A stretch of DNA of 64,000 bases, from assembly GCF_048260245.1 (NCBI RefSeq), contig NZ_JBLXGZ010000011.1, positions 960-64,959 of the forward strand, given 5' to 3'. The notes beneath the pieces are model-generated. The model searched no databases. It was not told the origin of the DNA and saw only the letters and a program-made list of their open reading frames with translations. This DNA comes from Kordiimonas sp. (GTDB lineage: Bacteria > Pseudomonadota > Alphaproteobacteria > Sphingomonadales > Kordiimonadaceae). This document shows positions 17,647 through 34,700 of this stretch, one piece after another. Position 1 is the first letter of the stretch. Each line of letters begins with the position of its first letter. Both the position numbers and the translations under genes were made by a program.

Positions 17647-17664
17647 TGTGTTCTCACGATTCTA

Positions 17665-17683
17665 TGACTTTCATAAAAATACC
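17665..17683 (+). promoter_or_regulatory. island motif copy a: TGACTTTCATAAAAATACC
   Basis: Matches the 19-bp consensus TTACTTKCATAAARATACC. It lies in the NMO/HCCA-isomerase divergent gap. Confidence 0.6.
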
Positions 17684-17733
17684 TATATTAGGCATAGCCG
17701 GAGCATCTCTGTTTGGCAATCGCTGTTCACATG

Positions 17734-17752
17734 TTACTTGCAAAATAATACC
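17734..17752 (+). promoter_or_regulatory. island motif copy b: TTACTTGCAAAATAATACC
   Basis: Second copy in the same gap, 45-63 nt upstream of ATG 17797. Confidence 0.6.
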
Positions 17753-17796
17753 AATACTCTATCTTACCAGGCAGGTTGCTGTTTTGGGAGGAAGGC

Positions 17797-18390
17797 ATGC
17801 GTTCGGAACTGATTTTTTATTTCGATTTTTCGTCGGCCTATTCATATATCGCCCAAGCTCGGATCGACGCGGTGTTTGCCGATGTTGATGCAGATATCCG
17901 CTGGCGGCCAATCTTGTTGGGAGCAATTTTCCGAGAAAACGGCTGGGTGCCGGTAAGCCCTGGCTCCCCCAAGGGTGACTATACTTTCCGTGATGTGGAA
18001 CGGACTGCACGGCTCGCGGGTCTTGAATTCGGTTGGCCGAAGATTTTTCCGTTTAACGGCATGCTGGCCGCTCGGCTGTTTTATGCTCTGGATAGCGTGG
18101 ATGCTGTGGCTTTTGCGCGGGCGGTGTTCCACGCGGCTTATGTATCTGGCCAGGATGTCACAAACCCGGCCGTGCTGGAGGGGCTGGTGGGCGATCTTGG
18201 TCTTGATTGTGCCGCGGTGACGGCACGTAGCGAGCTTGAGGAGGTGAAAGCCCGGCTCAGGGATGAAACGACGGCTGCGATGAAGGCAGGTGTTTTTGGT
18301 GCACCGAGTTTTGTTGTGAACGGGGAGGTCTTCTGGGGGGCCGACAGGATGACGGATGCCCGGGATTGGGCCGCAAGCGGCGGCTGGTAG
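17797..18390 (+). CDS. 2-hydroxychromene-2-carboxylate isomerase family protein (DsbA-like/GST-kappa fold)
   Basis: I moved the start to ATG 17797 after GGGAGGAAGG. LIFYFDFSSAYSY and VFGAPSFVVNGEVFWGADRM are hallmark blocks of the family. Confidence 0.85.
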   Translation: MRSELIFYFDFSSAYSYIAQARIDAVFADVDADIRWRPILLGAIFRENGWVPVSPGSPKGDYTFRDVERTARLAGLEFGWPKIFPFNGMLAARLFYALDSVDAVAFARAVFHAAYVSGQDVTNPAVLEGLVGDLGLDCAAVTARSELEEVKARLRDETTAAMKAGVFGAPSFVVNGEVFWGADRMTDARDWAASGGW

Positions 18391-18407
18391 CGAACGGAGA
18401 CATGTAA

Positions 18408-19646
18408 ATGGCGAATGATATATTTATCCTTGGTGGGCACCAGACTGATTTTGCGCGGAATTGGGCGCGCGAAGGCCTCGAGCTTATGGATATGTTTCGC
18501 GAAACGCTGGAACAGGGGCTGGCGGCAGCCGCTCTTGACGCGGCTGAAGTTGATGCGGCCCATGTGGGTAACTTTACCGCTGAGCTTTTCTGCAATCAGG
18601 GCCATTTGGGCGGTTTTCTTGCCGAAGCCGTGCCGGCAATGAGCGGTATCCCCGCTGGCCGGCATGAGGCCGCCTGTGCATCCAGCAGTATCGCTACCCT
18701 AGCGGCAACCGCTGAGATAGAGGCCGGGCGCTACGATATTGTTGCCGTGCTGGGTATTGAGATGATGCGCAACGTACCAGGTGATCAGGCGGCCCAATAT
18801 ATCGGCGGCCCTGCCATGTGGTCTGGCCATGAATGTCTGGACGTGAAATATCCATGGCCGCATATGTTTGCCCGTCTCGGGGACGAGTATGACCGGCGTT
18901 ACGGACTGAAGCATGAGCATCTGGCGGGCATCGCTGAAATTAACTATGCTAACGCGAAACGAAACCCCAATGCGCAAACCCGGGGCTGGGAGTTTAACGA
19001 TAAAAGTTTTACCGAGGACAGCGAGGCCAACCCGGTGATCGACGGTCGTATTCGCCGGCAGGACTGTGGTCAGGTCTCAGACGGCGCCGCTGTCGTGTTT
19101 CTTGCCAGTGAAAAGGGTGCGCGGGCCTACTGCCGTAAACGTGGTTTGGATATCGCTGCCCTGCCGCGTATCCGGGGCTGGGGCCATACCGTGGCCCCGA
19201 TCTCATTCGACGCGAAGCTTCGGGAAGGGCAGCAAGCCAACTCACCGTATATCTTTCCGCATGTTCGGGGGGCTATTGAGGCTGCGTTTGGACGTGCCGG
19301 GCTTTCTGGTGTGGCGGAATTGGACGCAATTGAGACCCACGACTGTTTCACGACCACGGAATATATGGCGATCGACCATTTTGGTATTACGGCGCCCGGC
19401 GAAAGCTGGAAGGCGGTGGAAGACGGTACCATTGCGTTTGATGGCCGCCTGCCGGTGAACCCCAGCGGCGGACTTATCGGGCTGGGCCACCCGGTTGGTG
19501 CCACCGGTGCGCGCATGCTTCTCGATGCATCCAGGCAGGTTGCGGGAAAAGCCGGTGATTATCAGGTAGATGGTGCGGGCACAGTTGCAACGCTCAATAT
19601 TGGCGGGAGTGCTACGACCACGGTGTCCTTCATCGTTGGTCGGTGA
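18408..19646 (+). CDS. SCP2/SCP-x-type thiolase-like protein
   Basis: 412 aa. Nucleophile context EAACASSSIA, HDCF motif (IETHDCFTTTE) and NPSGGLIGLGHPVGATG. Confidence 0.8.
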   Translation: MANDIFILGGHQTDFARNWAREGLELMDMFRETLEQGLAAAALDAAEVDAAHVGNFTAELFCNQGHLGGFLAEAVPAMSGIPAGRHEAACASSSIATLAATAEIEAGRYDIVAVLGIEMMRNVPGDQAAQYIGGPAMWSGHECLDVKYPWPHMFARLGDEYDRRYGLKHEHLAGIAEINYANAKRNPNAQTRGWEFNDKSFTEDSEANPVIDGRIRRQDCGQVSDGAAVVFLASEKGARAYCRKRGLDIAALPRIRGWGHTVAPISFDAKLREGQQANSPYIFPHVRGAIEAAFGRAGLSGVAELDAIETHDCFTTTEYMAIDHFGITAPGESWKAVEDGTIAFDGRLPVNPSGGLIGLGHPVGATGARMLLDASRQVAGKAGDYQVDGAGTVATLNIGGSATTTVSFIVGR

Positions 19647-19661
19647 CGCCTCTCAGGCATT

Positions 19662-19696
19662 GGTGGGAGGGCTGCGGTGGGTTGCAGCCCTCCACC
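19662..19696. terminator. GC-rich hairpin between convergent genes; no clear U-tract
   Basis: GGTGGGAGGGCTGC (19662-19675) pairs with GCAGCCCTCCACC (19684-19696) with one bulged G and an 8-nt loop. Confidence 0.5.
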
Positions 19697-19699
19697 ATA

Positions 19700-21385
19700 T
19701 TACAGCAAGCCCCGCAGTTCGCTCCGGATCACCTTGTTCATACTGTTACGCGGTAACGTGTCGCCAAGCACCAATTGCTCGGGCCATTTGAATTTGGCGA
19801 CACCGCATTCAGCGAGATACGAGGTAAGTTCCGCCAGTGTCAGGGTTTCACCTGCGTTGGTGACAACTACAGCGGCGACCTTTTCTCCCATCACCCGGTC
19901 ACTAAAGCCGACGACCGCAGCTTCCGAAACAAGGGGATGGTCGGTGATTACATGATCCAATTCCTCGGGTGAGATGTTCATGCCCCCGCGGATGATCAGT
20001 TCCTTGCGGCGGCCAACAAAACGGTAAAAACGATTATCTTCCCCTCCGATCTCAAACAGGTCGCCGGTGCGGAAATATCCCTCATTATCAAAGACACCTT
20101 CGGTTTTAGCGGCGTCGCCCAGATAACCGTCAAATACATTGGGCCCAGTGATTAAAAGCTCACCGGCGATACCCGGTTCGGTGATCTCGCGGTCATCCGC
20201 CTGCCAGTCTACCAGTTTGGTACGGCAGCGGTTGGCAAACCGGTTGCTCCAGTTGATCTCAGGGCGCCCAAAACGCGGGAACAGTGTGGCCCGGACCTCG
20301 GGGTCCGGTATGTCGCTCGGCCCGCCGACCAGCCCGGCACCTTCGTTGGAACCGTAGAAATTGACAATCTCCACATCAAATAAATCCTTGAAACCCTTTG
20401 TCATGGAGGGGCTGAGCGGGGCTGAGCCTGACGCAATATAATCGACATGGCTCAGATCCACGGTCTTGTGCAGTTCCGTGTGTTGCAAAAACATATTGAG
20501 GACCGCAGGCGGCGCAATGGTATAGGCCACCTTCTCCGCAACAATTTGGGAGAGGAAAACCTGCAGGTCAAAGGGGTGGTGCATGACAAGGCAGGCTTTT
20601 GCCATGGGCCAGTAATACAGGAACCCTGAGATTGCCCCCATGTTGGTCAGCGGGAAGGGATTGAGCATAACCGCCCCGTCCCTGACGGGCGCAGCGTCAG
20701 CCACGGCGCCGACCTGACTGGTCCAGTGGTTGTGATGGCGCGGCACACCCTTGGGCACGCCGGTTGTGCCTGATGTCCAGCATATGGTGAAGATCTCGTT
20801 GGGCGAAATATCGGGGCGTGTGACGGTGGGGACGTCTTCATCAGCGTCGATAGTGGGAAAAAAGAGCAGGGCAACGTGTGTCCCCTTGGTTTGGCTGTTG
20901 TCTTCAAACGCCAAAATGGTGGTATCTGCCCCGAACGCCGCCGTGCGGTCCGCCAGATGATCTACACCCCGGAAAGCGGTAACGGTCAGATAGGCCCTGG
21001 CCTTCGTTACCTCTGCAGCGCGGGCCAATTCAAATCGGCCGTATTGCATTGGCATGGGGCTGATGATGGCGCCAAGCCGGTCAGTCGCGATATAGGCGAT
21101 GACAAGTTCCGCAATGTTGGGCAATTGCACGATGATCACATCACCGGTGCCGACGCCGTTTTCTGATAAAGTGCTGGCAAGACGGTCCGCAAGGCGTGAA
21201 ACCTGAGCATATGTCAGCCGACACGGTGCGCCTGCGACAAGGTCCTTGCGGTTAGGCGGATCAATCAGGGCAAGGCGGTCCGGCGCATCGTTGACCGCAT
21301 CGGCGATCAGGCTAGCGAAGGTGGTGTCACCCCACCAGCCGCGGTCTGTATACTGTTTGACGGTTTCGCTGTCAGTTGATCGCAT
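19700..21385 (-). CDS. AMP-dependent acyl-CoA synthetase/ligase
   Basis: 561 aa. AMP-binding motif TSGTTGVPKGV, YRTGDL-like FRTGDLF, and C-terminal NSMNKVIRSEL. Confidence 0.85.
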   Translation of the reverse strand: MRSTDSETVKQYTDRGWWGDTTFASLIADAVNDAPDRLALIDPPNRKDLVAGAPCRLTYAQVSRLADRLASTLSENGVGTGDVIIVQLPNIAELVIAYIATDRLGAIISPMPMQYGRFELARAAEVTKARAYLTVTAFRGVDHLADRTAAFGADTTILAFEDNSQTKGTHVALLFFPTIDADEDVPTVTRPDISPNEIFTICWTSGTTGVPKGVPRHHNHWTSQVGAVADAAPVRDGAVMLNPFPLTNMGAISGFLYYWPMAKACLVMHHPFDLQVFLSQIVAEKVAYTIAPPAVLNMFLQHTELHKTVDLSHVDYIASGSAPLSPSMTKGFKDLFDVEIVNFYGSNEGAGLVGGPSDIPDPEVRATLFPRFGRPEINWSNRFANRCRTKLVDWQADDREITEPGIAGELLITGPNVFDGYLGDAAKTEGVFDNEGYFRTGDLFEIGGEDNRFYRFVGRRKELIIRGGMNISPEELDHVITDHPLVSEAAVVGFSDRVMGEKVAAVVVTNAGETLTLAELTSYLAECGVAKFKWPEQLVLGDTLPRNSMNKVIRSELRGLL

Positions 21386-21409
21386 GTGCTTCCCCTCCCG
21401 TGTGATTTA

Positions 21410-21428
21410 TTACTTGCATAAAGATACC
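21410..21428 (+). promoter_or_regulatory. island motif copy c: TTACTTGCATAAAGATACC
   Basis: Lies 25-43 nt upstream of the ligase start (opposite strand) and about 120-140 nt upstream of the tandem HxlR gene. Confidence 0.6.
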
Positions 21429-21550
21429 ATTAAGGAGCGCCGTTCAAATGTCAACAAGGCTCAGCGTATCTGCCGGCAAACTGCGGCCAATCCGCTGGTG
21501 GCCTAGACTAACAGGCGAATATAGGTATTATCGGCGAACGGACGCAGCTG

Positions 21551-22546
21551 ATGTTTTGCTGGTCTCCATCAATAACGGGGTGTTTTGTGGCGGAAACAAA
21601 ATTTATTCGCACATGTTCTATCTGGCGGGCTCTTGGAGTAGTGGGTGATTTCGCCACGCTGCTAATTCTCGAATCGATCTGGCAGGGCGCCCGGCGGTTC
21701 AGCGAAATTCAAAGCCGTACCGACATGTTGAAGGCGCTGCTGAGTGGCAGGCTAAAGCAATTAGTGGCAAATGGTCTTCTTGTGAAAGTGGCCTATACGG
21801 ATACGCCCAAGCGTTATGAATACCGCATGACGGAGAAATGCCGGGAGTTATACTGGACGGCACTTATGATGCTGCGGTGGGAAAAGCGCTGGAGTTCTGG
21901 ACACGCAAAAACCAGCGTGATTTTGACCCACAAGGGCTGCGGCCAGGAATTCGACCCCATACCAAGCTGCAGTGATTGTGAAAAAGAGATTTTTGCCCGT
22001 GATGTGACGTGGCAAGAGGGGCCGGGGGTCGGCTGGATGGCGCCAACCTATAGCCGGCGCCGCCAAGGTGAAGGGCGCCAGGCGGCGGGTGAGCGCACAA
22101 GCCTGTTTCATGAAATTGCCCTTGTGACTGGTGATCGCTGGGCTGGGCTTATTCTGCGCTCCGTCTTTACAAGGCTGCGCAAATTCGACGAGATCCGTAA
22201 GGATACGGGCATTGCGACCAATATTTTATCTGACAGGTTAAACCAGTTGGTGGAAAGCGGTTTTCTGTTCACGCATGCCTATCAGGACGCTCCCAAGCGC
22301 TATGAATACCGGCTGACCGATAAGGGCTGGGATTATTATCCTGTGTTGCTGATGCTGCTGCAGTGGGGTGACAAATGGTATGCGTCCCCGGAGGGTCCGC
22401 CCTTGTTGCTGAATCATAAACTATGCGGTCATGAGCTGACACCAACGGTTAATTGCTCAGCCTGTGGTGGCGTGATTTCGCCTGATGACGTCAGCTACAC
22501 GCTGGTGGAAGGTGCTAAAAAGGCGCCGTCCTTGGCTGAAGGATAG
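21551..22546 (+). CDS. fused tandem HxlR-type winged-helix transcriptional regulator (two HxlR modules in one chain)
   Basis: 331 aa. Module 1 is CSIWRALGVVGDFATLLILESIWQGARRFSEI...TPKRYEYRMTEKCRELY. Module 2 is IALVTGDRWAGLILRSVFTRLRKFDEI...APKRYEYRLTDKGWDYY. Each module is followed by H-x2-C-x9-C-x2-C. The start is uncertain: ATG 21551 or GTG 21587. Confidence 0.8.
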   Translation: MFCWSPSITGCFVAETKFIRTCSIWRALGVVGDFATLLILESIWQGARRFSEIQSRTDMLKALLSGRLKQLVANGLLVKVAYTDTPKRYEYRMTEKCRELYWTALMMLRWEKRWSSGHAKTSVILTHKGCGQEFDPIPSCSDCEKEIFARDVTWQEGPGVGWMAPTYSRRRQGEGRQAAGERTSLFHEIALVTGDRWAGLILRSVFTRLRKFDEIRKDTGIATNILSDRLNQLVESGFLFTHAYQDAPKRYEYRLTDKGWDYYPVLLMLLQWGDKWYASPEGPPLLLNHKLCGHELTPTVNCSACGGVISPDDVSYTLVEGAKKAPSLAEG

Positions 22547-22559
22547 GCGCGCTAAAAAG

Positions 22560-22578
22560 TAACTTTCAAAAACATACC
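22560..22578 (+). promoter_or_regulatory. island motif copy d: TAACTTTCAAAAACATACC
   Basis: Lies 40-58 nt upstream of ATG 22618, the first gene of the seven-gene operon. Confidence 0.6.
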
Positions 22579-22617
22579 ATTGGTGCTAGGGTCTTCTGAC
22601 TGACAGGGGAGCCTAGT

Positions 22618-23529
22618 ATGTCATCAAGCGCGTCGTTGCATCATCGTAGCGTCATTATTACCGGGGCTGGTAAAGGCCTTGGTCGGGCTTTTGCTCACGA
22701 TCTTGCGCAGCGCGGCTGCCGGGTTGTCGTGAATAATCGTGCTCATGAAGGCGTGCCCAGCGCTGCGGAATCCGTGGCTTCTGAAATTCATTCGGCAGGC
22801 GGCGACGCGGTAGCCGATCACAGTGACATGCAGGATGCAGGCGTTGGTGAGGCATTGGTCAACACTGCTTTGGCGCATTATGGCGCTATCGATGGCCTCA
22901 TACTGAATGCTGGTATCACGGGTCCTGCTGCAAAGGTGGCCGACAGCAGTTTTGTCGACCTAAGGTCTGTTTTTGAAACTAACTTCTTCTCTGCCGTTTC
23001 GATTGTGATGGCGGCGCTTCCCAGCTTGCGAAAATCGACAGATGCCAGAGTAGTGTTTGTCGCATCTACTGCAGGCCTGTATGGCGTGCGGGGGCGCGCG
23101 CCATATGCAGCGTCCAAGGCGGCGATGGTTGCTTATGCCCTGACCTTGGCGGCGGAGCTCAAGCGGGAGGGTGTGGGGGTAAACATCCTTGTGCCCTACG
23201 CGGAAACCCAAATGACCGCCGGGCTGGGTGATAGTGGGCTGGACCTGAGCCCCGCTCTGGTGGCGCCCGTTACAAGCTGGCTGATGTCGCCAGAGTGCCA
23301 TGCAAGTGGCGAGATATGGGTTTCGGGCGGCGGATACGTCAGGCGGGCGCGCATGGAGGAAGGCCTGGGGGCCGCATTGCCAACGGATGGCTGCGACCCT
23401 GTGGCGTGGCTTGCGGCAAACGCGCATCAAGCAGGCGACATGCAGGCAGGCAGGGGTTTCCCCGGTGCCGAGGCTGCGTTCACTGATCTGATGACGCGCC
23501 TGCAGGCTGCACGGGGAGGTGCAGCGTGA
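22618..23529 (+). CDS. SDR family oxidoreductase (3-hydroxyacyl-CoA-dehydrogenase-like)
   Basis: 303 aa. ITGAGKGLGRAFA cofactor motif and catalytic YAASKAA. Confidence 0.85.
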   Translation: MSSSASLHHRSVIITGAGKGLGRAFAHDLAQRGCRVVVNNRAHEGVPSAAESVASEIHSAGGDAVADHSDMQDAGVGEALVNTALAHYGAIDGLILNAGITGPAAKVADSSFVDLRSVFETNFFSAVSIVMAALPSLRKSTDARVVFVASTAGLYGVRGRAPYAASKAAMVAYALTLAAELKREGVGVNILVPYAETQMTAGLGDSGLDLSPALVAPVTSWLMSPECHASGEIWVSGGGYVRRARMEEGLGAALPTDGCDPVAWLAANAHQAGDMQAGRGFPGAEAAFTDLMTRLQAARGGAA

Positions 23530-24584
23530 GCTACCGCGTTATTCAATGGGCGACGGGGGCCATGGGCAAGACTTGCTTGCGCGCAGTGATTGATCATCCT
23601 GACCTCGAGCTTGTCGGGTTATATGTTTATAATGCCAAAAAGGCGGGTGTTGACGCGGGCGATATCGCTCACCGCGAGAAAACTGGTGTGCTGGCGACAC
23701 GGGATATAGATGACATTCTGGCACTTGAAGCCGATGTGGTGATTTTTGCGCCCATGCTGCAGCCGCCGTATATAAGCCATGATGCCACCATCATGCAGTT
23801 GTTGGCATCAGGCAAAAACGTTATCAGTATCAACGGCCAAAGCTATCCCGTGCATTGGGGGGGCGAGCACGCGGGCAAGTTTGATACAGCCTGCAAATCG
23901 GGCAGCAGCACGCTGCTTGGGGGTGGGCTGAACCCTGGATTTATTGTCGAGCGTATCGCCGCAGCCGCAACAGGCATATGCACCCGGCTTGACCGTGTCA
24001 AGGTTCAGGAAATTGTGCATTGTCAGGCGATGCGGAGCCCGGCGTATGTTTTTGATATGCTTGGTTTCGGCGCTGACGCGGGCAGCATTGATCCCAATAA
24101 TAGGGGGTGGGCACCGGCCGAGTTGCTGAACGGATTGTATAGCGAAGTTGTCGCGGGCTTCGTGGCCCGCCTGGGGCAGAAACTCGACCGGGTTGAGACC
24201 GCTCACCGTATGCTACCAGCCAGCAAGGATATTGAGATCGCGGCAGGGCAAATTCGCGCAGGCACAGTAAGCCACACACAGTGGTGTTGGCATGGCATTG
24301 TCGGTGGCCAGCGGCTTTTCACCTTACAAATCGACTGGATCATGGAAACCGCGCATCTGGAAAATCCGAACCAGCCTATTTGGCAGGTGTCGGTGTCAGG
24401 CGACCCCATGGTTGATATCCGCATAGACCTTGACCGCCGCGAGGGGGACAGCTTCAAGACGTCACCTGAACAATACGGCGTGGCGGGCTCTGTACTCAAT
24501 TCAATCCCGGCGCTTGTGAACGCGCCACCGGGGCTGATGCTGATGCCTTCAGCTCCATCATTCCAAAGCCACATGGCACCCTGA
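23526..24584 (+). CDS. NAD(P)-binding oxidoreductase of the dihydrodipicolinate-reductase-N-terminal-like (amine dehydrogenase) family
   Basis: 352 aa. N-terminus RVIQWATGAMGKTCLRAVIDHPDLELVGLYVY resembles DapB-like Rossmann proteins. GTG start overlaps the upstream stop (GTGA). Confidence 0.6.
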   Translation: MSYRVIQWATGAMGKTCLRAVIDHPDLELVGLYVYNAKKAGVDAGDIAHREKTGVLATRDIDDILALEADVVIFAPMLQPPYISHDATIMQLLASGKNVISINGQSYPVHWGGEHAGKFDTACKSGSSTLLGGGLNPGFIVERIAAAATGICTRLDRVKVQEIVHCQAMRSPAYVFDMLGFGADAGSIDPNNRGWAPAELLNGLYSEVVAGFVARLGQKLDRVETAHRMLPASKDIEIAAGQIRAGTVSHTQWCWHGIVGGQRLFTLQIDWIMETAHLENPNQPIWQVSVSGDPMVDIRIDLDRREGDSFKTSPEQYGVAGSVLNSIPALVNAPPGLMLMPSAPSFQSHMAP

Positions 24585-24605
24585 ATACACGTGAGGGAGA
24601 AACAG

Positions 24606-26081: not shown

Positions 26082-26119
26082 AGGACAATGAGCCTGCAGT
26101 ATAATGGGGGAGAGTATCA

Positions 26120-26917: not shown

Positions 26918-26918
26918 A

Positions 26919-27461
26919 ATGCAGTATGACGATAAAGCCATCCGTGCGTTGCTTGACAAAAAGGCGATCGAAGAGGTGCTTGTACGCTATTGCCGTGGTG
27001 CTGACCGGGGTGATGCCGACCTGATTGCAAGCGCCTACCACGACGACGCAGTGGAAGATCACGGCGGCACCTTTCTGGGGTCTGCCCGTGACTATCTTGA
27101 CCTCTTGCGCAAAGTACTGCCTGCGGCCGGCCGCATGAGCCATGCCATTACCAACATGCTGGTGGAGCTTGAGGATGACACCCAAGCTACAAGCGAGTGT
27201 TACATCCTGACTTTCTCCCGGCGTGGTGAGGGAGAGGACGGTTACGACAGCCTCACAATGGCGCGCCTCATTGACAAGTTTGAAAAGCGTGACGGGGAAT
27301 GGCGCATTGCCCATCGTCGGTTGGCGTGGGAATGGAACCATGAAATGCCCATCCGCGAAACCTGGGGCCGGGGTATGATTGCCCCTGACCCGGATAGCCT
27401 GATACGCGGCGGCAAGGTGCCGGATGATATTCTCTATAATTTCAGTTTCGGGAGGGATTAA
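26919..27461 (+). CDS. NTF2-fold protein, SnoaL_4-like
   Basis: I moved the start to ATG 26919, 1 nt after the upstream stop. KKAIEEVLVRYCRGADRGDADLIASAYHDDA...RDGEWRIAHRRLAWEWN. Paralogue of 28213-28740. Confidence 0.75.
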   Translation: MQYDDKAIRALLDKKAIEEVLVRYCRGADRGDADLIASAYHDDAVEDHGGTFLGSARDYLDLLRKVLPAAGRMSHAITNMLVELEDDTQATSECYILTFSRRGEGEDGYDSLTMARLIDKFEKRDGEWRIAHRRLAWEWNHEMPIRETWGRGMIAPDPDSLIRGGKVPDDILYNFSFGRD

Positions 27462-28195
27462 TGGACATTGAAGGCTGTGTTGCCCTGGTGACGGGAGGTA
27501 ACCGGGGGATCGGTTTGGGCTTTGTGTCCGAGTTGGTCAGGGCAGGAGCCAAAAAGGTGTATGTCGGCTGCCGATCACTGGCTGACGGTGAGGCCATTGC
27601 AGCTACTGACCCCGAGTATCTTGTTGCCCTTGAGCTTGATGTGACAAATGCGGATCAGGTTGCTGCCGCCGCTGCCAAATGCACGGACGTGTCGCTGTTG
27701 GTTAATAATGCTGGGGCTTTCCTCAATCAGCGGCTGATTAGAGCGGACACCATGGATGCGATGCGTACCGAGATGGAGGTCAATTATTTCGGTGTCGTGG
27801 CGATGTGCCGTGCGTTTGCGCCCGTGCTCAAGTCGAACGGCGGGGGTGCCATTGTGAATGTGCTGTCGGCGGGCGGTATTGTCGCTGTGCCGGGCATGGG
27901 CGGCTACAGCCCGTCAAAATTCGCGTCGCGGGCAGCAAGTACCTGTATGCGTGCGGAACTGGCGGGGCAGGGTACCACCATATCGGCGTTGATTGTCGGC
28001 TCGGTTGATACCCGCATGGCGGCACATATCAAGCGGGATAAATCCTCACCGGAGGCCATTGGTCGTGCGGGTATCGCGGCCGCAAAATCCGGCGTTGAAG
28101 AAATGGACACTGACGCGCACGCCATGGAAGTGCGCGCTGCGCTGCACCGTGACCCGAAGGGGTTGGCGGACGCAATGGCGGCGGCGGTTCGCTAG
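27461..28195 (+). CDS. SDR family oxidoreductase
   Basis: 244 aa. ALVTGGNRGIGLGF and catalytic YSPSKFA. The start overlaps the upstream stop (TAATG). Confidence 0.85.
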   Translation: MDIEGCVALVTGGNRGIGLGFVSELVRAGAKKVYVGCRSLADGEAIAATDPEYLVALELDVTNADQVAAAAAKCTDVSLLVNNAGAFLNQRLIRADTMDAMRTEMEVNYFGVVAMCRAFAPVLKSNGGGAIVNVLSAGGIVAVPGMGGYSPSKFASRAASTCMRAELAGQGTTISALIVGSVDTRMAAHIKRDKSSPEAIGRAGIAAAKSGVEEMDTDAHAMEVRAALHRDPKGLADAMAAAVR

Positions 28196-28212
28196 AGAAG
28201 GAATTATTATTT

Positions 28213-28740
28213 ATGGCTAATACAGTTGAGACCATGCTTGCCAAGCAGGATATCCGTGATGTGCTGACCAATTATGCCCGTGCGGTCGACCGGGCTGACG
28301 CACCACTGTTGAAATCTTGCTATCACGCGGATGCGATTGAAGAACACGGCAATACTTACACAGGTCCTGCACATGCTTATGCGGACGGTGCGGCGGAGCG
28401 GTTGATGAAGCTCAAGCACCCGATGGCGCACTATGTTTGCAATATCCATGTCGACCTTGATCTTGAGGCGGGTGTGGCATTTGTGGAAAGTTACCTGCTG
28501 ACTTTCGCCCGGTTCGACAAGGGGCAAGAGCCATGGGACACGCTCACCGGCGGGCGTATTGTTGACCGGTTTGAATGTCGGGATGGTGAGTGGAAAATTG
28601 CCCACCGTAAAATGGCGTTTGACTGGAACCGCGATATGCCTGTAGCCGAGGGTTGGTGCCTTGGCCTCTTCAAGCCGGAAGACCCGCGGGTGATCATGGG
28701 GACACGGGGAAGCGCCGATCTTTCATATCAGCGTTTTTAA
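28213..28740 (+). CDS. NTF2-fold protein, SnoaL_4-like
   Basis: 175 aa. KQDIRDVLTNYARAVDRADAPLLKSCYHADA...RDGEWKIAHRKMAFDWN. Confidence 0.75.
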   Translation: MANTVETMLAKQDIRDVLTNYARAVDRADAPLLKSCYHADAIEEHGNTYTGPAHAYADGAAERLMKLKHPMAHYVCNIHVDLDLEAGVAFVESYLLTFARFDKGQEPWDTLTGGRIVDRFECRDGEWKIAHRKMAFDWNRDMPVAEGWCLGLFKPEDPRVIMGTRGSADLSYQRF

Positions 28741-28770
28741 CCCGCCCTGGTCCGCAGCGAGTATGCTGGC

Positions 28771-29193
28771 TCAGCGTTCAAGGTCGGCAACAAGGTTGTC
28801 CCAGACTGCGCTGGACCTGGCGGCCTTCGCCGCTTTGAGCACATCATAATCAAAATAGTCGCGCCAGCGCCGCACCTTGCCGTCCTCGAATTCCATGACA
28901 CCCATGTAAGGCATACGGACAGTAATGCCTTCCGGGTCGGTATATTCGTCAATACCCTCAATCATCAGGGTATCGCCGACTTCAAACGCGCGGATGATAC
29001 GCCAGCGAATATCTGACTGGCCTTTGCCGAATTTAAGCAGGAAACGCTCGACATTGTTGCGCCCCTCAAGGGGCGGTGTCCCAACATGGTAGTGATAAAC
29101 GACATCCGGGTGCAGGTGGTCTAGCACAGCTTCGACATCATCGACCTTCCAGGCGTTGATAACGGCGTCAAGCGTTGCACGATGGTTGCTCAT
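28771..29193 (-). CDS. NTF2-fold protein, limonene-1,2-epoxide-hydrolase-like
   Basis: 140 aa with no signal peptide. C-terminal block FEDGKVRRWRDYFDY resembles the LEH family. Paralogue of 31326-31808. Confidence 0.6.
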   Translation of the reverse strand: MSNHRATLDAVINAWKVDDVEAVLDHLHPDVVYHYHVGTPPLEGRNNVERFLLKFGKGQSDIRWRIIRAFEVGDTLMIEGIDEYTDPEGITVRMPYMGVMEFEDGKVRRWRDYFDYDVLKAAKAARSSAVWDNLVADLER

Positions 29194-29258
29194 ATCTTTC
29201 CTTCCTTAGCGAGGTTGTGAGGTGTGCCGTTTTCCGTTGGCATAGCTTCTGTCTTTTG

Positions 29259-29277
29259 TTACTTTCATAACAAAACC
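29259..29277 (+). promoter_or_regulatory. island motif copy e: TTACTTTCATAACAAAACC
   Basis: Lies in the divergent gap between 28771-29193 (-) and the ligase gene (+), 106-124 nt upstream of ATG 29383. Confidence 0.6.
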
Positions 29278-29382
29278 TTATAGGGCGTGGGGCACTGCGT
29301 CAATTGAGAAGATGTGCGGCATAAGCCTATATATTTTCGGTATAAGCCTCGAATGGACAATGACGTTGGGGAGGATAAAAGT

Positions 29383-31233
29383 ATGATAAAGCAACTTGAT
29401 TTAGGGTCTATTCCTTACCGCTCAATCGACCTGCCGGCGGTCGATATCAGCCGTGTGGAACGCCCGGACGGGACCTTGATCCTTGAAAACAATATCGCCC
29501 TGCCGCCTTTCGATCCCCTGTTATATGGTCACCTGAAAAGACAGGCATCTGCGCAGCCAACAAAAACTGCACTGGCAGAGCGAAACCGGGAGACAGGTGA
29601 GTGGCGCTGCCTCAGCTTTGCGGAGATGTTTGCTTATGTATGTTCGGCCGCGCAGGGGCTGCTCAATCTGGGTGGCGGCCCTGACCGGCCATTGATGATC
29701 CTGTCCGGTAACAGTATAGCCCATGCGCTGATGCGGTTTGGCGCCATTGTCGCTGGTGTGCCGGTATGCCCGGTGAGCGAAAACTATGCGCTGATGCCCG
29801 GAAGCCATGACCGGTTGAAACATGTGTATCAACTGGTGAAGCCTGGTATTTTGTTTGCGGAAGGCGGCGCGCCCTTTAATGCGGCTCTTTTATCGCTGGG
29901 GCTTGATGGTCAAACGGTGATCAGCGCCGATCCAGACGGTCTACCCGTGCCGGGACTTAAACTTGAAACCCTGTTAAACACGGTGCCAGCGCCGGACCTT
30001 GAGACACACATCCTCAGCCGTGACCCGGACCAGCACGCAGCCTATATGCTGACCTCGGGCTCCACTGGCCGGCCAAAGGCGGTGGTCCACAGCCAGCGTA
30101 TGGTATTGACAAGCCTGTTTCAGGCGTATGCCGTATTGGGCGAGGCCATGGGCTGGCAGGATCGTTTGCTGGACTGGCTGCCCTGGAGTCATGTCTCAGG
30201 CGCGACCAACTTGACGGGCGCTACAGTTTTTGGCGGTAGCTTTTATGTCGATGACGGTAAACCCGCGCCGGGCCTTTTTGAGAAAACCCTTCGTAATCTT
30301 AAAGATCTCTCCGTGCCGTACTTCGCCAATGTGCCCTTTGGCTATGCGATGCTGGTGGATGCACTGGAGGCAGATGCCGACCTGAGGCGTGCTTTTTTCA
30401 AGAATCTGCATCTTATGCTTTATGGTGGGGCTGGCTTGCCGCAAGCGACGTATGAGCGCCTTCAGTCGATGGCTGTCGAAGAAGTAGGGGCCAGAATATT
30501 CATTACCACTGGTTACGGCGCTACTGAAACGACATCGGGATGCATGGCAATTTTCTTTGATAGCCATATGGTTGGCGTTGGCCTGCCGTTGCCGGGTCTT
30601 ACTGTCAAGTTGGTGCCGGCGGGAGATGCGTTTGAGGTGCGAATGAAGGGCGACAATGTGATGTCGGGCTATCTCGATGACCCGGCTCAAACGTCTAAAA
30701 GTTTTGACGAGGAGGGCTTCTACCAACTTGGTGACAAGTTAAATTTTCATGAACCAGACAATATCGCGGCAGGCTTATATTTTGCTGGGCGACTGGCGGA
30801 GGAGTTCAAGTTAGGGACAGGGTCCTGGGTATCGGGCGGCAGGGTGCGCGGTGGGCTGATTGCGGCGCTGTCGCCACTGGTTAGTGATCTTATTCTTTGC
30901 GGCGAAGGGCGTGATGAACTGGCAGTTTTGGCGGTGCCGAACGCCTTGGGGCTCGCGGGCCTCGCTGGAGGTGAGGTGGCTGGGAACCCGCTGGAAAATA
31001 TTGCCATCAGGCGGGCGATGTCCGGGAAGCTGCAAAGCTGGAACGCTGCCAACCCCGGGAAATCAACGCGTATCGGGCGCTTTGCCTTTCTTGAAAAACC
31101 GCTCAGTGCTGACTGTCACGAGGTTTCGGATAAAGGCACGATCAACCAAGCGGCTGCTATCCGCAACCGAGCGGAGGAAGTGGAGCAGCTATACGCAGAT
31201 AGTCCGGGCGAATTTGTTTTGGCTTGTGACTGA
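29383..31233 (+). CDS. AMP-binding acyl-CoA synthetase, feruloyl-CoA-synthase-like
   Basis: I moved the start to ATG 29383 after GGGGAGGATAAAAGT. LTSGSTGRPKAV motif, GYGATETT, and a long N-terminal region like Fcs-type ligases. Confidence 0.8.
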   Translation: MIKQLDLGSIPYRSIDLPAVDISRVERPDGTLILENNIALPPFDPLLYGHLKRQASAQPTKTALAERNRETGEWRCLSFAEMFAYVCSAAQGLLNLGGGPDRPLMILSGNSIAHALMRFGAIVAGVPVCPVSENYALMPGSHDRLKHVYQLVKPGILFAEGGAPFNAALLSLGLDGQTVISADPDGLPVPGLKLETLLNTVPAPDLETHILSRDPDQHAAYMLTSGSTGRPKAVVHSQRMVLTSLFQAYAVLGEAMGWQDRLLDWLPWSHVSGATNLTGATVFGGSFYVDDGKPAPGLFEKTLRNLKDLSVPYFANVPFGYAMLVDALEADADLRRAFFKNLHLMLYGGAGLPQATYERLQSMAVEEVGARIFITTGYGATETTSGCMAIFFDSHMVGVGLPLPGLTVKLVPAGDAFEVRMKGDNVMSGYLDDPAQTSKSFDEEGFYQLGDKLNFHEPDNIAAGLYFAGRLAEEFKLGTGSWVSGGRVRGGLIAALSPLVSDLILCGEGRDELAVLAVPNALGLAGLAGGEVAGNPLENIAIRRAMSGKLQSWNAANPGKSTRIGRFAFLEKPLSADCHEVSDKGTINQAAAIRNRAEEVEQLYADSPGEFVLACD

Positions 31234-31250
31234 CAAAGCAGTGTTCAGGC

Positions 31251-31280
31251 ATAAAAAAGCCCCGCACAGAGATGCGGGGC
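31251..31280 (-). terminator. Rho-independent terminator for the minus-strand NTF2 gene
   Basis: GCCCCGCA (31259-31266) pairs with TGCGGGGC (31273-31280). On the minus strand it is followed by TTTTTTAT. Confidence 0.7.
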
Positions 31281-31296
31281 GTAAGGCGAAAAACCC

Positions 31297-31321
31297 GGGG
31301 GCCAGACCCCCCTGAATTTTT
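31297..31321 (+). terminator. Rho-independent terminator for the plus-strand ligase gene
   Basis: GGGGG (31297-31301) pairs with CCCCC (31307-31311), followed by CTGAATTTTT. The stem is short. Confidence 0.5.
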
Positions 31322-31325
31322 ACGC

Positions 31326-31808
31326 CTAATGTTTTTCAAGAGCTGGGCTGTCGATTTCACGGATCCCCATTTGGCCGAGTAACTGAGCCCGGTCATAATA
31401 TTCGCGCCATTCCTGTACATGGCCGTCCTTGATTACAAGTACGCCGACCACTGGCACAGCACCGTGTAGATCACCGATGTTGAAATCGTCTACCCTTTCC
31501 AGGAAAACGACGTTTCCGTTTACGGCAACATTCTTGAGTGTCAGTTCCAGACGGGTTGCGCCGTTCAATACCGCGCCGATATGAGTGCGCAGCATTTCAC
31601 GGCCCTGAATGGGGTCAATCATCACCGAATGCAGCACGCCGTCTTCGGCGAACAATTCAGCGATGCGATTGACGTCGAGGTCGTTCCAGGCCTGGACCAT
31701 CGCATTTGCGACCTCCAGTGCGCCGGTTTCTTCATCAGATTGCGCGCAGACCTGAGGGCTGGCAGCGAGGAGCAGCCCGATTGCTGCGGTTTTGAGACTT
31801 TTGATCAT
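31326..31808 (-). CDS. secreted NTF2-fold protein, limonene-1,2-epoxide-hydrolase-like
   Basis: The track start at 31943 overlaps the receptor gene. ATG 31808 gives MIKSLKTAAIGLLLAASPQVCAQSDEE (signal peptide) and 160 aa. The block IKDGHVQEWREYYD is LEH-like. Confidence 0.65.
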   Translation of the reverse strand: MIKSLKTAAIGLLLAASPQVCAQSDEETGALEVANAMVQAWNDLDVNRIAELFAEDGVLHSVMIDPIQGREMLRTHIGAVLNGATRLELTLKNVAVNGNVVFLERVDDFNIGDLHGAVPVVGVLVIKDGHVQEWREYYDRAQLLGQMGIREIDSPALEKH

Positions 31809-31836
31809 GATTATACTCCGGGGTTTGGAAGGAGAG

Positions 31837-31871
31837 GGCGGGCCTGTGGACACTACCGTGCCAGGCCCGCC
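31837..31871 (-). promoter_or_regulatory. intercistronic 10-bp perfect hairpin between the receptor and secreted NTF2 genes
   Basis: GGCGGGCCTG (31837-31846) pairs with CAGGCCCGCC (31862-31871) around a 15-nt loop. There is no U-tract. Confidence 0.6.
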
Positions 31872-31878
31872 GACATAT

Positions 31879-34203
31879 TTAGAAATCCAGCGAGAGTTCG
31901 AAACCGTAGGTCCGCGGGGTTCCAAGGGTGGACACTTCATCACCCAAAAAGGCGATGATGTTCGTGCGGTATAAGGTGTTGGTCAGGTTTTTGCCCCAGA
32001 CCGAGAAAGTCCAATTGGCGTCTGCCGGGCTGAGGCTGATGCGGGCATCAAGAAGGCCGTAACTATCCTCATACTGGAAGTTGTCCGGCAGCCAATATAG
32101 TTTGCCTTGCTGGGAGTAGTTGACCCGCATGCTGAGCGCATCACTCATGTCCATGAAGTCGGTGGTCAGCTCTGCGCCCACATTAAACTGATAGTTTGGT
32201 GTACGCTGTAGGTTGCCGCCTGAATTATCCAGGCCGTTGCCGTCAATGAAGTCCTTATACTCGGTATCGAGCAAAGTGCCCGCTGCCCATAGGAATAGCG
32301 CATCGGTTACGACAAACTGCAACTCGGTCTCGACGCCGCGGATCGTCGCATCCGCGGCATTATCGGTGATGTTGCAAAGGCAACCGTCATCGGTCTGGGT
32401 AACCTGAAGGTTTTTGTAGTCCATGGAGAAAGCGGCGGTGTTGAGCCGGGCCCGGCCGTCGAGAAATTCCCACTTCATGCCAAGCTCGAAACTGGTCACT
32501 GTCTCCGGATCATAGGCGATCTGCGCAGCGGTGGCATTGGCGGGCGTGTCTTCAAACCCGCCCCCTTTATACCCTTTGGCCGCACTGGCGTAGAGCATGA
32601 TGTCCGTGGTTGGTGTGAACTCTAGTATCGCTTGTGGTGTAACCTCGCTCCAGCTTTCGCCATAGTCGGTGGTGAAACTTTCACCTTCAAGCAAACCGAC
32701 AATCGGGGTCAGGGAGACGGGGTCGTCAGGGTTGAACTGGTCGCCGGTCTCGATCGCGGTGCCGGTGACAGTACCGGTTTTTTTGTCATGAGAGTAACGC
32801 ACGCCTGCGGTCAGCTTCCAGGCTTCGGCAAACTGATAGCCAGCTTGCGCAAAGGCAGCATAGTTGGTTGTTTTACCCACGTTGTCCCAATGGGATTCGC
32901 CGGAGATAGTGGGTAGCGGGAACGGAATTTCGCCCCAATATTTGTCGAACTTGTCCACTTTGTCATGCTGGAAATAGGCGCCGACGATCCAGTCGAACTT
33001 GCTATCGGCATAATCGCTGGTGAGCCTGAGTTCCTGACTGATCTGTTTAATGTCTTCTTCTTCGTTCACAGGGAACGAGAATGCGAACGGGCTGATTACA
33101 CCAAACCCGCTGTCCGGTCCTGCGCCCGATTGATCATACACACCTGTCGCGTCACCACTGCGGTACCCTGTGATACTGGTCAGGACCATGTCGTCACCCA
33201 ACGGCTTTTCCATATTCAGGGTGATACTGAAGGCTTCACGGTCATGGCCCTGGGGGGTGTCAAAACTGTCCCCTTTGTAGCGCGGGTGCTCAGGCAGACT
33301 TTCGCGGATATCAAGTCCTCCCTCACGGTTTGCGGCAATAAAGGCACGGGTGGTGCTCCATGGATTGGCGCCGGGGTTGTTCGGGTCAGGGATAGCGACC
33401 CGATGAATACCGTTGGAGCTGTCTTTCATATAATCGATGATCAGGCGCGCCTGAAAATCGGAATCGTCCGGTGTGAACATCAACTGACCGCGCATCTGGA
33501 TAGAATCAAGATTGTCCAAGTCCCGCTCATGCAACACATCACGGTTATATCCGTCATGGTGACGTGCCTGAAAAGAGAAGCGTCCGGAAACGCTGTCGCT
33601 CAAGCCGCCAGTGACGTAGCCTGACGCATGCACGGCATTATAGTTACCGTAGCCGAACGTCATGTGCGCCACCCCTTCTTGCTGCGGCTTTGCCGTGATG
33701 ATGCTGATAGCGCCACCAACAACATTTCGTCCCAGAAGTACACCTTGCGGTCCGCGAACAACCTCTACGCGCTCAATGTCGTAAAAATCTGCGTTCAGTA
33801 GTCCGGAGCGGCCAACATAAACGTCATCGACAAAAATGCCGATCGATTGGTCGGCTGATGGCGCGTCAAGGCGAGTGTTGGTAATGCCCCGGATGTTGAA
33901 CTCCTGATCGAGTGGCGAATTCTCAGTGTAAGAAAGTGACGCCACGCTGCGCGCTAGGTCAGAGTAGTTATAGATACGATCTTTTTCGAGAGTGGCGCCT
34001 GTTACTGCCGATACCGCCAGAGCACTATCTTGCAGCCCAACCTCCCGACGTTGGGACGTGATGACAATTTCCTCCAGTCTGGAGACTGTTTCGGCGTCTT
34101 GTTCAGCGATTCCGGTATCTGCGGTTTGGCCTGCGTAAGTGGCTGACGAGGCGAGCAGAGCCGTCATGACCGCAACAAAAGATGTTGCTGTTTTATAATG
34201 CAT
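31879..34203 (-). CDS. TonB-dependent receptor
   Basis: I moved the start to ATG 34203 after GGAAGGAAACAGAC. Signal peptide MHYKTATSFVAVMTALLASSATYAG; plug EEIVITSQRREVGLQDSALAVSAV; terminal ELSLDF with C-terminal Phe. Confidence 0.9.
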   Translation of the reverse strand: MHYKTATSFVAVMTALLASSATYAGQTADTGIAEQDAETVSRLEEIVITSQRREVGLQDSALAVSAVTGATLEKDRIYNYSDLARSVASLSYTENSPLDQEFNIRGITNTRLDAPSADQSIGIFVDDVYVGRSGLLNADFYDIERVEVVRGPQGVLLGRNVVGGAISIITAKPQQEGVAHMTFGYGNYNAVHASGYVTGGLSDSVSGRFSFQARHHDGYNRDVLHERDLDNLDSIQMRGQLMFTPDDSDFQARLIIDYMKDSSNGIHRVAIPDPNNPGANPWSTTRAFIAANREGGLDIRESLPEHPRYKGDSFDTPQGHDREAFSITLNMEKPLGDDMVLTSITGYRSGDATGVYDQSGAGPDSGFGVISPFAFSFPVNEEEDIKQISQELRLTSDYADSKFDWIVGAYFQHDKVDKFDKYWGEIPFPLPTISGESHWDNVGKTTNYAAFAQAGYQFAEAWKLTAGVRYSHDKKTGTVTGTAIETGDQFNPDDPVSLTPIVGLLEGESFTTDYGESWSEVTPQAILEFTPTTDIMLYASAAKGYKGGGFEDTPANATAAQIAYDPETVTSFELGMKWEFLDGRARLNTAAFSMDYKNLQVTQTDDGCLCNITDNAADATIRGVETELQFVVTDALFLWAAGTLLDTEYKDFIDGNGLDNSGGNLQRTPNYQFNVGAELTTDFMDMSDALSMRVNYSQQGKLYWLPDNFQYEDSYGLLDARISLSPADANWTFSVWGKNLTNTLYRTNIIAFLGDEVSTLGTPRTYGFELSLDF

Positions 34204-34319
34204 GTCTGTTTCCTTCCCCATGGTGTCCCGGCGCCGCCTTCCCTGCCGCGCCCCCTTGCTGGTCGTTTGATCCGAAAGGGGTGGGAGCCTCCGGTTATCA
34301 CGTTAAGCGCGATATAGTA

Positions 34320-34338
34320 GGTATGTCAATGCAAGTTT
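34320..34338 (-). promoter_or_regulatory. island motif copy f: AAACTTGCATTGACATACC (minus-strand reading)
   Basis: Lies 117-135 nt upstream of the receptor start at 34203 and is oriented with that gene. Confidence 0.6.
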
Positions 34339-34410
34339 ATATAGGAGTGGGTAAATAGAAAAATATCGGCTTATTAATAACATTAATAGGTCTTGTCGTG
34401 AGGGTTCTAA

Positions 34411-34429
34411 TTAGTTTTATAAAAATACC
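34411..34429 (+). promoter_or_regulatory. island motif copy g: TTAGTTTTATAAAAATACC
   Basis: Lies in the 570-bp receptor/thiolase divergent gap. Confidence 0.5.
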
Positions 34430-34543
34430 AAAGGTTGAAAGGAAACCTACAGCGTCGTCGGAAGTGCTTGAAAATCAGCAGCTATTTGTCTGCGAACAAT
34501 CGCCAAAGTAGCGTTTTTCTATTTGTTGGTATTGACCCTAGCA

Positions 34544-34562
34544 TAAATTGCATACCGATACC
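34544..34562 (+). promoter_or_regulatory. island motif copy h: TAAATTGCATACCGATACC
   Basis: Same gap, 212-230 nt upstream of ATG 34774. Confidence 0.5.
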
Positions 34563-34681
34563 ATAAATGCCGAATGCCGGGTAAATCCGTTGGTGGCGAT
34601 CCTCGTGGAAGCTAAAAATAGGAAAAAAATATCGATTCTTTGTCAGGGTCAGAGTCATTGACAGCGCGGTTTTGCCTCAAT

Positions 34682-34700
34682 AGTATTGTTAAGCAAGTTA
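34682..34700 (-). promoter_or_regulatory. island motif copy i: TAACTTGCTTAACAATACT (minus-strand reading)
   Basis: Same gap, 74-92 nt upstream of ATG 34774. This is the weakest of the nine copies. Confidence 0.45.

Follow-up and report, generated by a model that had tools for sequence, protein, structure and literature searches.

Regulators of the HxlR/DUF24 family normally bind DNA as homodimers that dimerise through helices alpha1 and alpha5, and they sense electrophiles via a conserved N-terminal cysteine (PMC7835342), while winged helix-turn-helix (wHTH) dimers of the MarR type read palindromes or pseudopalindromes of 16-20 bp in adjacent major grooves (PMC6798810). The known members, including HxlR, YodB, CatR and HypR of B. 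subtilis and QsrR of S. aureus, are about 105-145 residues long and work as homodimers on (pseudo)palindromes (PMC7835342, PMC6798810). Asymmetric recognition has been described for MarA, which binds class II marboxes as a monomer, in an asymmetric complex that has a defined orientation and overlaps the -35 element (PMC6900184). Here we analyze a stretch of 64,000 nucleotides from a Kordiimonas genome (contig NZ_JBLXGZ010000011.1, positions 960 to 64,959; hereafter the window), in which a preliminary description had pointed out nine copies of a non-palindromic 19-bp motif in the intergenic gaps of one gene island and had proposed that the motif is the operator of a dedicated regulator, with a tandem HxlR protein encoded in the island as candidate.

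This protein resembles the HxlR/DUF24 regulators in its Pfam family (PF01638), its fold and the position of an invariant N-terminal cysteine, and also in being a local regulator encoded beside oxidoreductase and oxygenase genes. It differs from them in joining two diverged repeats in one chain of about 320 residues, in carrying the cysteine solely in repeat 1 and an extra beta unit in each repeat, and in the lack of dyad symmetry in its associated site. Since the two domains are fused in one chain and the site lacks a dyad, we regard it as a variant and not as an ordinary member of the family. Control by a local winged-helix regulator whose operator lies in the target promoters is a well-known principle; the fused architecture with a polar candidate operator is a new variation on it. 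Our preferred explanation, which we consider probable, is that the 19-bp motif is the operator of the island's own tandem HxlR protein, that it is embedded in core promoters, and that its occupancy represses transcription.

Results

Nine motif copies occupy the promoter gaps of one gene island

The nine 19-mers are exact string matches in the window, on the strands and at the coordinates first reported, and recounting reproduced the conservation pattern: A3, T5, T6, K7, A15, A17 and C18 are present in 9/9 copies, and C8, A9, A11, T16 and C19 in 8/9. All nine lie between genes, as judged from a greedy open reading frame (ORF) map backed by Pfam assignments. Every divergent or 5'-side gap of the island has at least one site and its convergent gaps have none, which agrees with the earlier statement that each promoter-containing gap carries a copy.

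We built one position weight matrix (PWM) from the nine window sites and a second, external one solely from 166 sites of other genomes. The window PWM scores the nine sites at 21-29 bits (13-27 bits when each site is left out in turn), and its next-best matches in the 64 kb reach 19.6 bits (22964-22982, minus strand, within a short-chain dehydrogenase/reductase (SDR) gene) and then 14.2 bits. Eight of the nine sites score 21-28 bits with the external PWM; site 7 (34411-34429) is weak, at 14.3 bits. At a threshold of 12 bits this matrix returns 11 matches in the window, compared with 0.36 in block-shuffled controls, and all 11 fall between 17.6 and 34.7 kb. Neither matrix finds a match in the 47 kb of the window that lie outside the island, which agrees with the earlier remark that the flanking loci have no convincing copy. 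No dyad symmetry is apparent in the nine sites or in the pooled profile of 172 sites described below, as had been noted from the window alone.

The motif accompanies the regulator and the gene set in other genomes

We fetched 80 genome loci encoding relatives of the tandem HxlR protein, with 10-kb flanks, and carried out the weight-matrix scan of related genomes that the preliminary description had called for on 79 of them (1.4 Mb, GC content up to 72%), which belong to other Alphaproteobacteria and encode tandem HxlR proteins 53-65% identical to that of the window. The window matrix finds 164 sites of at least 16 bits in these loci, compared with 0.4 in 60-nt block shuffles or 0.15 with column-permuted matrices. 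All 167 matches (duplicates included) lie at most 400 nt from an island homologue, a space of 957 kb, and the other flanking DNA of the same loci, amounting to 441 kb, contains none. Motif, regulator and gene set co-occur across Caulobacterales, Maricaulales, Hyphomonadaceae and Sphingomonadales despite extensive shuffling of gene order, with the motif keeping its position before operon-leading genes while the order itself is heavily rearranged. The closest locus, L001, stems from an uncultured alphaproteobacterial metagenome-assembled genome and shares 75% nucleotide identity with the window over 7.8 kb. The specificity of the motif for the island, asserted earlier for the window, holds in about 490 kb of sampled non-island DNA, which is a sample and not a whole genome.

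A motif-first search of metagenome contigs, independent of any selection by the regulator gene, used the pattern TNACTTKCATAACGATACB and found at least 120 contigs with a match. Among the matches listed, 49 of 120 lie within 500 nt of an island homologue, and when only listed contigs with a GC content of at least 0.55 are considered, about 48 of 56 lie beside island genes. Nearly all of the other listed matches are on AT-rich contigs (GC 0.22-0.45), where a 19-mer of this kind is expected by chance. The listed GC-rich matches away from island genes are mostly inside long ORFs; three are intergenic, with neighbors that are unrelated or unassignable. The metagenomes also revealed a third architecture, HxlR2< TBDR< [motif] NMO> RPE65> Lig1> (TBDR, TonB-dependent receptor), in which the tandem HxlR protein is 41-44% identical to that of the window (L084, L089, L097, L100 and others). 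Many Phenylobacterium and Caulobacter loci encode a second tandem-HxlR paralogue, of 37-39% identity, after the NMO gene (L010, L013, L019, L023, L032, L044, L051 and others; at about 18-19 kb).

The regulator carries two HxlR domains in one chain

The tandem HxlR gene (21551..22546, plus strand) encodes 331 residues that match Pfam PF01638 in two stretches (E = 1.5e-34). It has 868 homologues at E < 1e-10. Many share about 55-65% identity with it along their whole length, and those with a named source belong to Maricaulis, Phenylobacterium, Caulobacter, Hyphomonas, Hyphococcus and sphingomonads. A profile search with the protein retrieves the structures of PA1607, PA1374, YodB, HypR, HxlR and QsrR; each solved chain among these matches covers one repeat, and none represents the tandem form. 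An AlphaFold2 (AF2) model (pLDDT 80.8, pTM 0.74) contains two wHTH units, each with the order H-H-H-H-beta-beta-H, and Foldseek aligns each repeat with single-domain family members (PA1607, PA1374, YodB, HypR, HxlR-DNA and QsrR-DNA) at TM scores of 0.75-0.84 on the target. In the model, the predicted recognition helices comprise residues 61-73 and 223-235, and a disordered linker spans residues 162-183. NCBIfam holds no dedicated model for the tandem protein, and we found no description of a natural tandem HxlR, of this gene cluster or of this regulon in the searchable literature.

Residue C22 is invariant in 86 sequences and lies 10 residues before G32-D33; repeat 2 has a serine at the equivalent position. 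The same spacing separates Cys11 from G21-G22 in HxlR, in the peptide given in PMC7835342. After each HxlR repeat comes a small beta unit of three strands (residues 121-156 and 285-320) with invariant H127/C130/C140/C143 and H289/C302/C305. These units resemble a zinc-knuckle-type insertion, and the equivalent residues are absent in an alignment to PA1607, the closest solved single-domain relative.

A single chain in which two domains have been fused and have diverged would explain a bipartite site that is not palindromic and whose conserved blocks have their centers about 10 bp apart. Pfam and NCBIfam assignments give the tandem HxlR gene as the only regulator gene of the island, and a co-directional site heads its own presumptive transcription unit in 43 of 72 loci, so the regulator is probably autoregulated. 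The preliminary proposal of one dedicated regulator, with this protein as the candidate, is supported by the co-occurrence, the motif-first search, the sites before the regulator's unit, the variant sites that a lineage with an altered block 2 keeps at the corresponding gaps, the lack of a second island regulator and the two-domain model, binding itself being putative.

The regulator ORF is about 12 codons longer than its homologues, and its annotated start is probably too far upstream. Just before it, at 21500-21540, two blocks are conserved (CCTAGACTA and GGTATTATCGG), and the promoter scan reports TAGACT-16-TATTAT. This segment may be the regulator's own promoter with a half-site, GGTAT being the complement of block 2 of the motif alone.

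Many sites overlap candidate core promoter elements

The pooled profile of 172 unique sites reads T1 A3 C4 T5 T6 K7 C8 A9 T10 A11 A12, two weak positions, and A15 T16 A17 C18 Y19, giving the consensus T-n-A-C-T-T-K-C-A-T-A-A-n-n-A-T-A-C-Y with two conserved blocks. Blocks 1 and 2 are 5 nt apart and their centers about 10 bp apart, a distance that would put both on the same face of the helix, in neighboring major grooves. For at least 132 of the 172 sites, an island gene in the same direction starts within 300 nt, and many of the exceptions are artifacts of start estimates. Measured from motif position 1, start codons lie most often at 50-59 nt, in a sharp peak, with a second peak at 80-89 nt.

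The sigma-70 consensus of Alphaproteobacteria is CTTGAC-N17-CTATAT, and Caulobacter promoters follow TTGACGS-N10-14-GCTANAWC. Block 1 of the motif (CTTKCA) resembles such a -35 element, and about 30% of the sites have a phased CTA/TAnnnT 16-17 nt further on: counted over all sites, [CT]TA starts at position 27-28 in 29%, compared with a background of 1-2% at other offsets. The flanks differ by gene class, with GCTAGG/GCTAAC at positions 26-31 of DapB_N-type sites, GTGGATGATCG downstream of SDR sites, ACTATGCRAGCT downstream of ligase sites and GTCAAA downstream of DUF1295 sites. The resulting arrangement CTTKCA-N17-CTAnnn agrees with the alphaproteobacterial sigma-70 consensus and suggests that block 1 often doubles as a -35 hexamer followed by a -10-like element at 16-17 nt. 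The motif differs from ordinary sigma-70 promoters in the conserved TAA..ATAC within the spacer, in the near-invariance of block 1 and in its restriction to one gene set. The preliminary description had held that the motif fits neither -35/-10 nor -24/-12 geometry; this remains correct for the motif as a whole, but it does not extend to its parts, given that block 1 often coincides with a -35 element and that reversed copies overlap a -10.

Individual sites of the window illustrate these layouts. Site 1 (17665..17683, plus strand, TGACTTTCATAAAAATACC) lies in the gap between the divergent NMO and DsbA genes, at 18 nt from the NMO start codon and oriented toward the DsbA gene; its scores are 28.3 bits (window PWM) and 26.4 bits (external PWM), and it is conserved in L001. 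Upstream of the operon for the DsbA-like protein and a thiolase, site 2 (17734..17752, plus strand, TTACTTGCAAAATAATACC) has TTGCAA at its positions 5-10 and, 16 nt later, TATCTT (17760-17765), and L001 keeps both the motif and the CTATCTT block. Site 3 (21410..21428, plus strand, TTACTTGCATAAAGATACC) is the top scorer, with 29.1 bits (window PWM) and 27.9 bits (external PWM), and occupies the divergent gap between an acyl-CoA ligase gene and the regulator gene, where the ligase start is 24 nt away and the annotated start of the regulator gene follows after 122 nt. On its minus strand, a footprint against L001 shows a conserved TTGACA (around 21450-21455) facing the ligase gene; 17 nt downstream of it is a hexamer that shares bases with the complement of block 2. 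Between the regulator gene and the SDR operon, site 4 (22560..22578, plus strand, TAACTTTCAAAAACATACC) presents TTTCAA and, 17 nt later, TAGGGT (22587-22592), itself preceded by TGC; aligned to L001, this gap contains exactly three conserved blocks, namely the motif, TGCTAGGGT (17 nt after TTTCAA), and the Shine-Dalgarno (SD) sequence with the ATG. Site 5 (29259..29277, plus strand, TTACTTTCATAACAAAACC), in the divergent SnoaL/acyl-CoA synthetase gap, points toward the synthetase gene (29314) and has a counterpart in L001 at 17892(+).

The remaining four sites lie near the TBDR and thiolase genes. Site 6 (34320..34338, minus strand, AAACTTGCATTGACATACC; 21.4 bits with the external PWM) points toward the TBDR gene, 98 nt from its start, and sites upstream of this gene recur in other genomes. 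Site 7 (34411..34429, plus strand, TTAGTTTTATAAAAATACC) is the weakest, a marginal copy that scores 24.5 bits with the window PWM versus 14.3 bits with the external PWM and is off-consensus at C4 and C8; it is the single doubtful copy among the nine. Site 8 (34544..34562, plus strand, TAAATTGCATACCGATACC; 21.4 bits with the external PWM) is in the TBDR/thiolase gap and points toward the thiolase gene. Site 9 (34682..34700, minus strand, TAACTTGCTTAACAATACT; 23.4 bits with the external PWM) precedes the thiolase start by 25 nt and faces away from that gene, as sites 1 and 3 do from their nearest start codons, all three at 18-25 nt. It overlaps the -10 of the region's best promoter-like match, a candidate sigma-70-type promoter for the thiolase gene (34658..34686, plus strand, TTGACA-17-TAGTAT) whose -10 overlaps the complement of site 9 block 2. 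This was the best sigma-70 match (10 of 12) in a promoter scan of 17000-35000, and we use this top match alone: the generic scan of that interval showed no overall enrichment (13 matches versus 11.3 expected).

Two matches lie in coding regions. A possible tenth site of uncertain status (22964..22982, minus strand, TTAGTTTCAAAAACAGACC) is inside an SDR gene, reaches 19.6 bits (window PWM) or 13.5 bits (external PWM), and has a weak counterpart in L001 at 11389(-); a weaker match of 12.1 bits is inside the regulator gene (21773-21791, minus strand). Both could be auxiliary or looping sites, or chance occurrences.

Other genomes add two further layouts. At LEH genes, the upstream motif ends 3-6 nt before the SD sequence, and tail-to-tail inverted pairs of sites occur about 11 nt apart in Maricaulaceae and about 21 nt apart in the Terricaulis group (L004 10992-11040; L005/L011 around 11022; L008 11018; L025/L036/L042 around 14190-14250). 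Such pairs suggest that in some promoters two regulator molecules may sit on one larger palindrome.

These data bear on what kind of element the motif is. That it is itself an alternative sigma promoter, either for sigma-54 on the opposite strand (GGTAT-N5-TGCAAG) or for a dedicated factor of the sigma-70 or extracytoplasmic function (ECF) type, we judge to be highly improbable. The motif is oriented relative to genes and close to start codons, and the reverse complement of its best copies has GG and GC 11 nt apart (GG-N10-GC), the spacing of a -24/-12 promoter. The key bases of such a promoter are not conserved in the pooled profile, where the would-be -12 C is C in 69% of sites and A in 31% and just 43% have the first G of the -24 GG, and at most sites a sigma-54 promoter would have the wrong orientation and fire away from the downstream gene. 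Read as a sigma-70 or ECF promoter in its entirety, the motif has its blocks 5 nt apart instead of 16-17 nt, and separate -10-like elements, differing by gene class, follow it. Pfam and NCBIfam assignments give no sigma factor gene within the island.

Equally little speaks for a motif that acts in RNA, as a 5' untranslated region element bound by a protein or small RNA, or that is a dispersed repeat of the REP or MITE type. Its common orientation with the downstream gene, near the start codon, would suit an RNA element. Rfam at E values up to 1 gives no match at the sites, folding yields no shared or significant structure (z-scores -2.6 to +1.8), and the motif is predicted to be unpaired. Moreover, some copies are reversed, some are arranged tail to tail and some lie upstream of a -10-like element, hence probably outside the transcript. 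A generic repeat or promoter element should recur at similar density elsewhere, as the preliminary description had itself pointed out; no such recurrence is seen in the 441 kb that flank the island genes in the sampled loci, nor in the other 47 kb of the window.

The same tandem HxlR protein at the same site could instead be an activator, in the manner of MarA, SoxS and Rob at class II marboxes overlapping the -35 element, or a dual activator and repressor, which we regard as the main rival, though an unlikely one. The strong co-directional bias and the sharp mode in the distance to the start codon are what a polar monomeric protein with two helix-turn-helix (HTH) units would produce if it needed a fixed orientation and distance to contact RNA polymerase, and in the main promoter class the site does overlap the -35 position. 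HxlR and HypR of the same family are described as activators in passages of PMC7835342 and PMC3351151, and MarA sets a precedent for asymmetric, oriented sites (PMC6900184). As at a marbox, one polypeptide with two DNA-reading units would face a non-palindromic site of about 20 bp, with similar polarity and a similar overlap with -35. The tandem protein is HxlR-type, with winged helices in place of AraC-type HTH units, and the site sequences are unrelated, so the likeness to the AraC-family two-HTH proteins is one of logic alone; MarA activates, whereas the geometry here favors repression. The site occupies the -35 and most of a normal-length spacer of 16-17 nt, leaving little room for sigma region 4, and reversed copies cover a -10 and the presumed transcription start. 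Some copies abut the SD sequence and others form tail-to-tail pairs, all of which is typical of repression, and the target promoters look strong unaided, near consensus on their own (TTGACA-17-TAGTAT, CTTGCA-N17-CTA). A double role of the blocks, in which block 1 also serves as a -35 and block 2, on the complementary strand, forms part of a -10, would account for the polarity of the sites and with it for the orientation bias.

A variant of the proposed operator occurs in one regulator lineage

Eight of the 11 loci without canonical matches form a Terricaulis-type group (L025, L029, L036, L038, L042, L058, L061 and L067) that has a variant site at the equivalent gaps. In this variant, GCTTGCAT-N4-GGAS/AGAC replaces ACTTKCAT-N4-ATAC, so that block 1 is kept and block 2 is changed. 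The Terricaulis-type regulators have the substitutions L60R/K61Q/A62S and T219S/A220G, at the N-termini of both recognition helices. The variant block 2 together with these recognition-helix substitutions is at most suggestive of co-evolution between operator and regulator: in the comparison of regulators from canonical-motif and variant-motif lineages the substitutions affect both helices, in one clade with exceptions, and so link neither domain to a particular block.

The island encodes a putative catabolic regulon

The putative regulon (16651..35979), delimited by Pfam and NCBIfam assignments, is a gene set that accompanies the regulator and the motif in other genomes in shuffled order. It comprises an NMO/FabK-like reductase, a DsbA-like protein, thiolases of the SCP-x and FadA types, two acyl-CoA ligases and two SDRs, and further a DapB_N-like dehydrogenase, an RPE65-type oxygenase of the carotenoid/lignostilbene class, a DUF1295 protein, several proteins with the SnoaL/LEH fold and a TBDR. 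Among these, the SDR operon contains genes for an SDR, the DapB_N-like protein, the RPE65 oxygenase, the DUF1295 protein, a SnoaL protein, a further SDR and a further SnoaL protein. The gene set looks like one for lipid- or terpenoid-type breakdown. The GC content of the island is not distinct from that of its flanks.

Some details of the map merit mention. The mechanically determined ORF starts look over-extended at 21551, 31326-31943 and 29314: in addition to the regulator ORF discussed above, the LEH ORF (31326-31943) has its Pfam match from residue 77 and overlaps the TBDR gene, and the acyl-CoA synthetase ORF (29314) has a GTG start well upstream of the homologous region. The convergent synthetase/LEH gap at 31244-31314 contains GC-rich hairpins with T-runs on both strands and looks like a bidirectional terminator; sub-threshold Rfam matches there (suhB/mmgR and anti-hemB) probably reflect just those hairpins. 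At the island edge, 477 nt (16174-16650) between a PliI-like gene and the 3' end of the NMO gene contain no ORF.

Discussion

From the sequences we infer that the tandem HxlR protein binds the motif, acts as a repressor and responds to an effector. Two non-identical HxlR/DUF24 winged helices fused in one polypeptide would form a single-chain pseudo-dimer, in which one recognition helix would read the half-site ACTTKCA(TAA) and the other ATAC, giving a non-palindromic, polar site. Single-chain HxlR sensors made by engineers imitate such a fusion. In the commonest layout, block 1 (CTTKCA) would serve as the -35 hexamer, with a -10-like element following at 16-17 nt; some reversed copies would contribute part of the -10 through the complement of block 2, and in other layouts the site would abut the ribosome-binding site or belong to a tail-to-tail pair. 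The occupied operator would exclude RNA polymerase and thereby repress. A signal related to the pathway would then release the repressor, possibly via C22 at the position of the family's electrophile-sensing cysteine; going by family precedent, one may speculate that an aldehyde or electrophilic product of the RPE65-type oxygenase is sensed there.

Several points weigh against this explanation. A strong constraint on orientation and distance is more typical of activators than of repressors. The genome loci were chosen via the regulator gene, so that co-occurrence in them is partly a matter of construction. Among the listed metagenome contigs with a match near an island homologue, the regulator is visible on 23 of 49, many being too short to show it, and several listed contigs of 8-11 kb have the motif and island genes with no tandem HxlR gene within reach. 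Conversely, the tandem-HxlR loci L033, L045 and L062 have no recognizable motif; their regulators, found in the context RPE65< DUF1295< HxlR2>, may be paralogues of different specificity. Finally, the co-variation of helix and operator concerns one clade and has two exceptions (L067 and L068).

The 8-11 kb contigs would also fit a motif read by another transcription factor encoded elsewhere, for instance a global regulator of lipid catabolism, with the tandem HxlR gene merely a member of the regulon. We nevertheless see slim prospects for such a factor. The tandem HxlR protein is the island's only regulator and is found with the motif in three different architectures, even where its identity drops to 41%, a non-palindromic bipartite site suits a fused heterodimer-like protein and few other types of bacterial transcription factor, and the absence of sites from the 441 kb of neighboring non-island DNA argues against a global factor.

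Beyond the window, operation of the motif as the tandem HxlR protein's operator would extend to a widespread family of single-chain fused-dimer HxlR/DUF24 regulators (868 or more protein clusters, mainly from Alphaproteobacteria), with diverged recognition helices and a polar operator that doubles as -35 or -10. This family would control a TonB-receptor-linked regulon for the catabolism of hydrophobic substrates (RPE65-type oxygenase, CoA ligases, thiolases and SnoaL/LEH proteins), with an electrophile possibly sensed at C22. We put this broader proposal forward tentatively, as a plausible one that the evidence does not yet tip in its favor.

If these proposals are correct, no general principle of gene regulation would be altered, and the locus would show, in a clear case from nature, how a palindromic operator becomes polar and bipartite once the halves of a dimeric winged-helix protein are fused and diverge. 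It would also provide a predicted inducible promoter/operator pair that could be used as a biosensor once the effector is identified. The regulon would be defined by the motif and the regulator together with about 17 genes, one of them for an outer-membrane receptor, and would serve a conserved, uncharacterized catabolic pathway that many Alphaproteobacteria of marine and fresh waters have in common.

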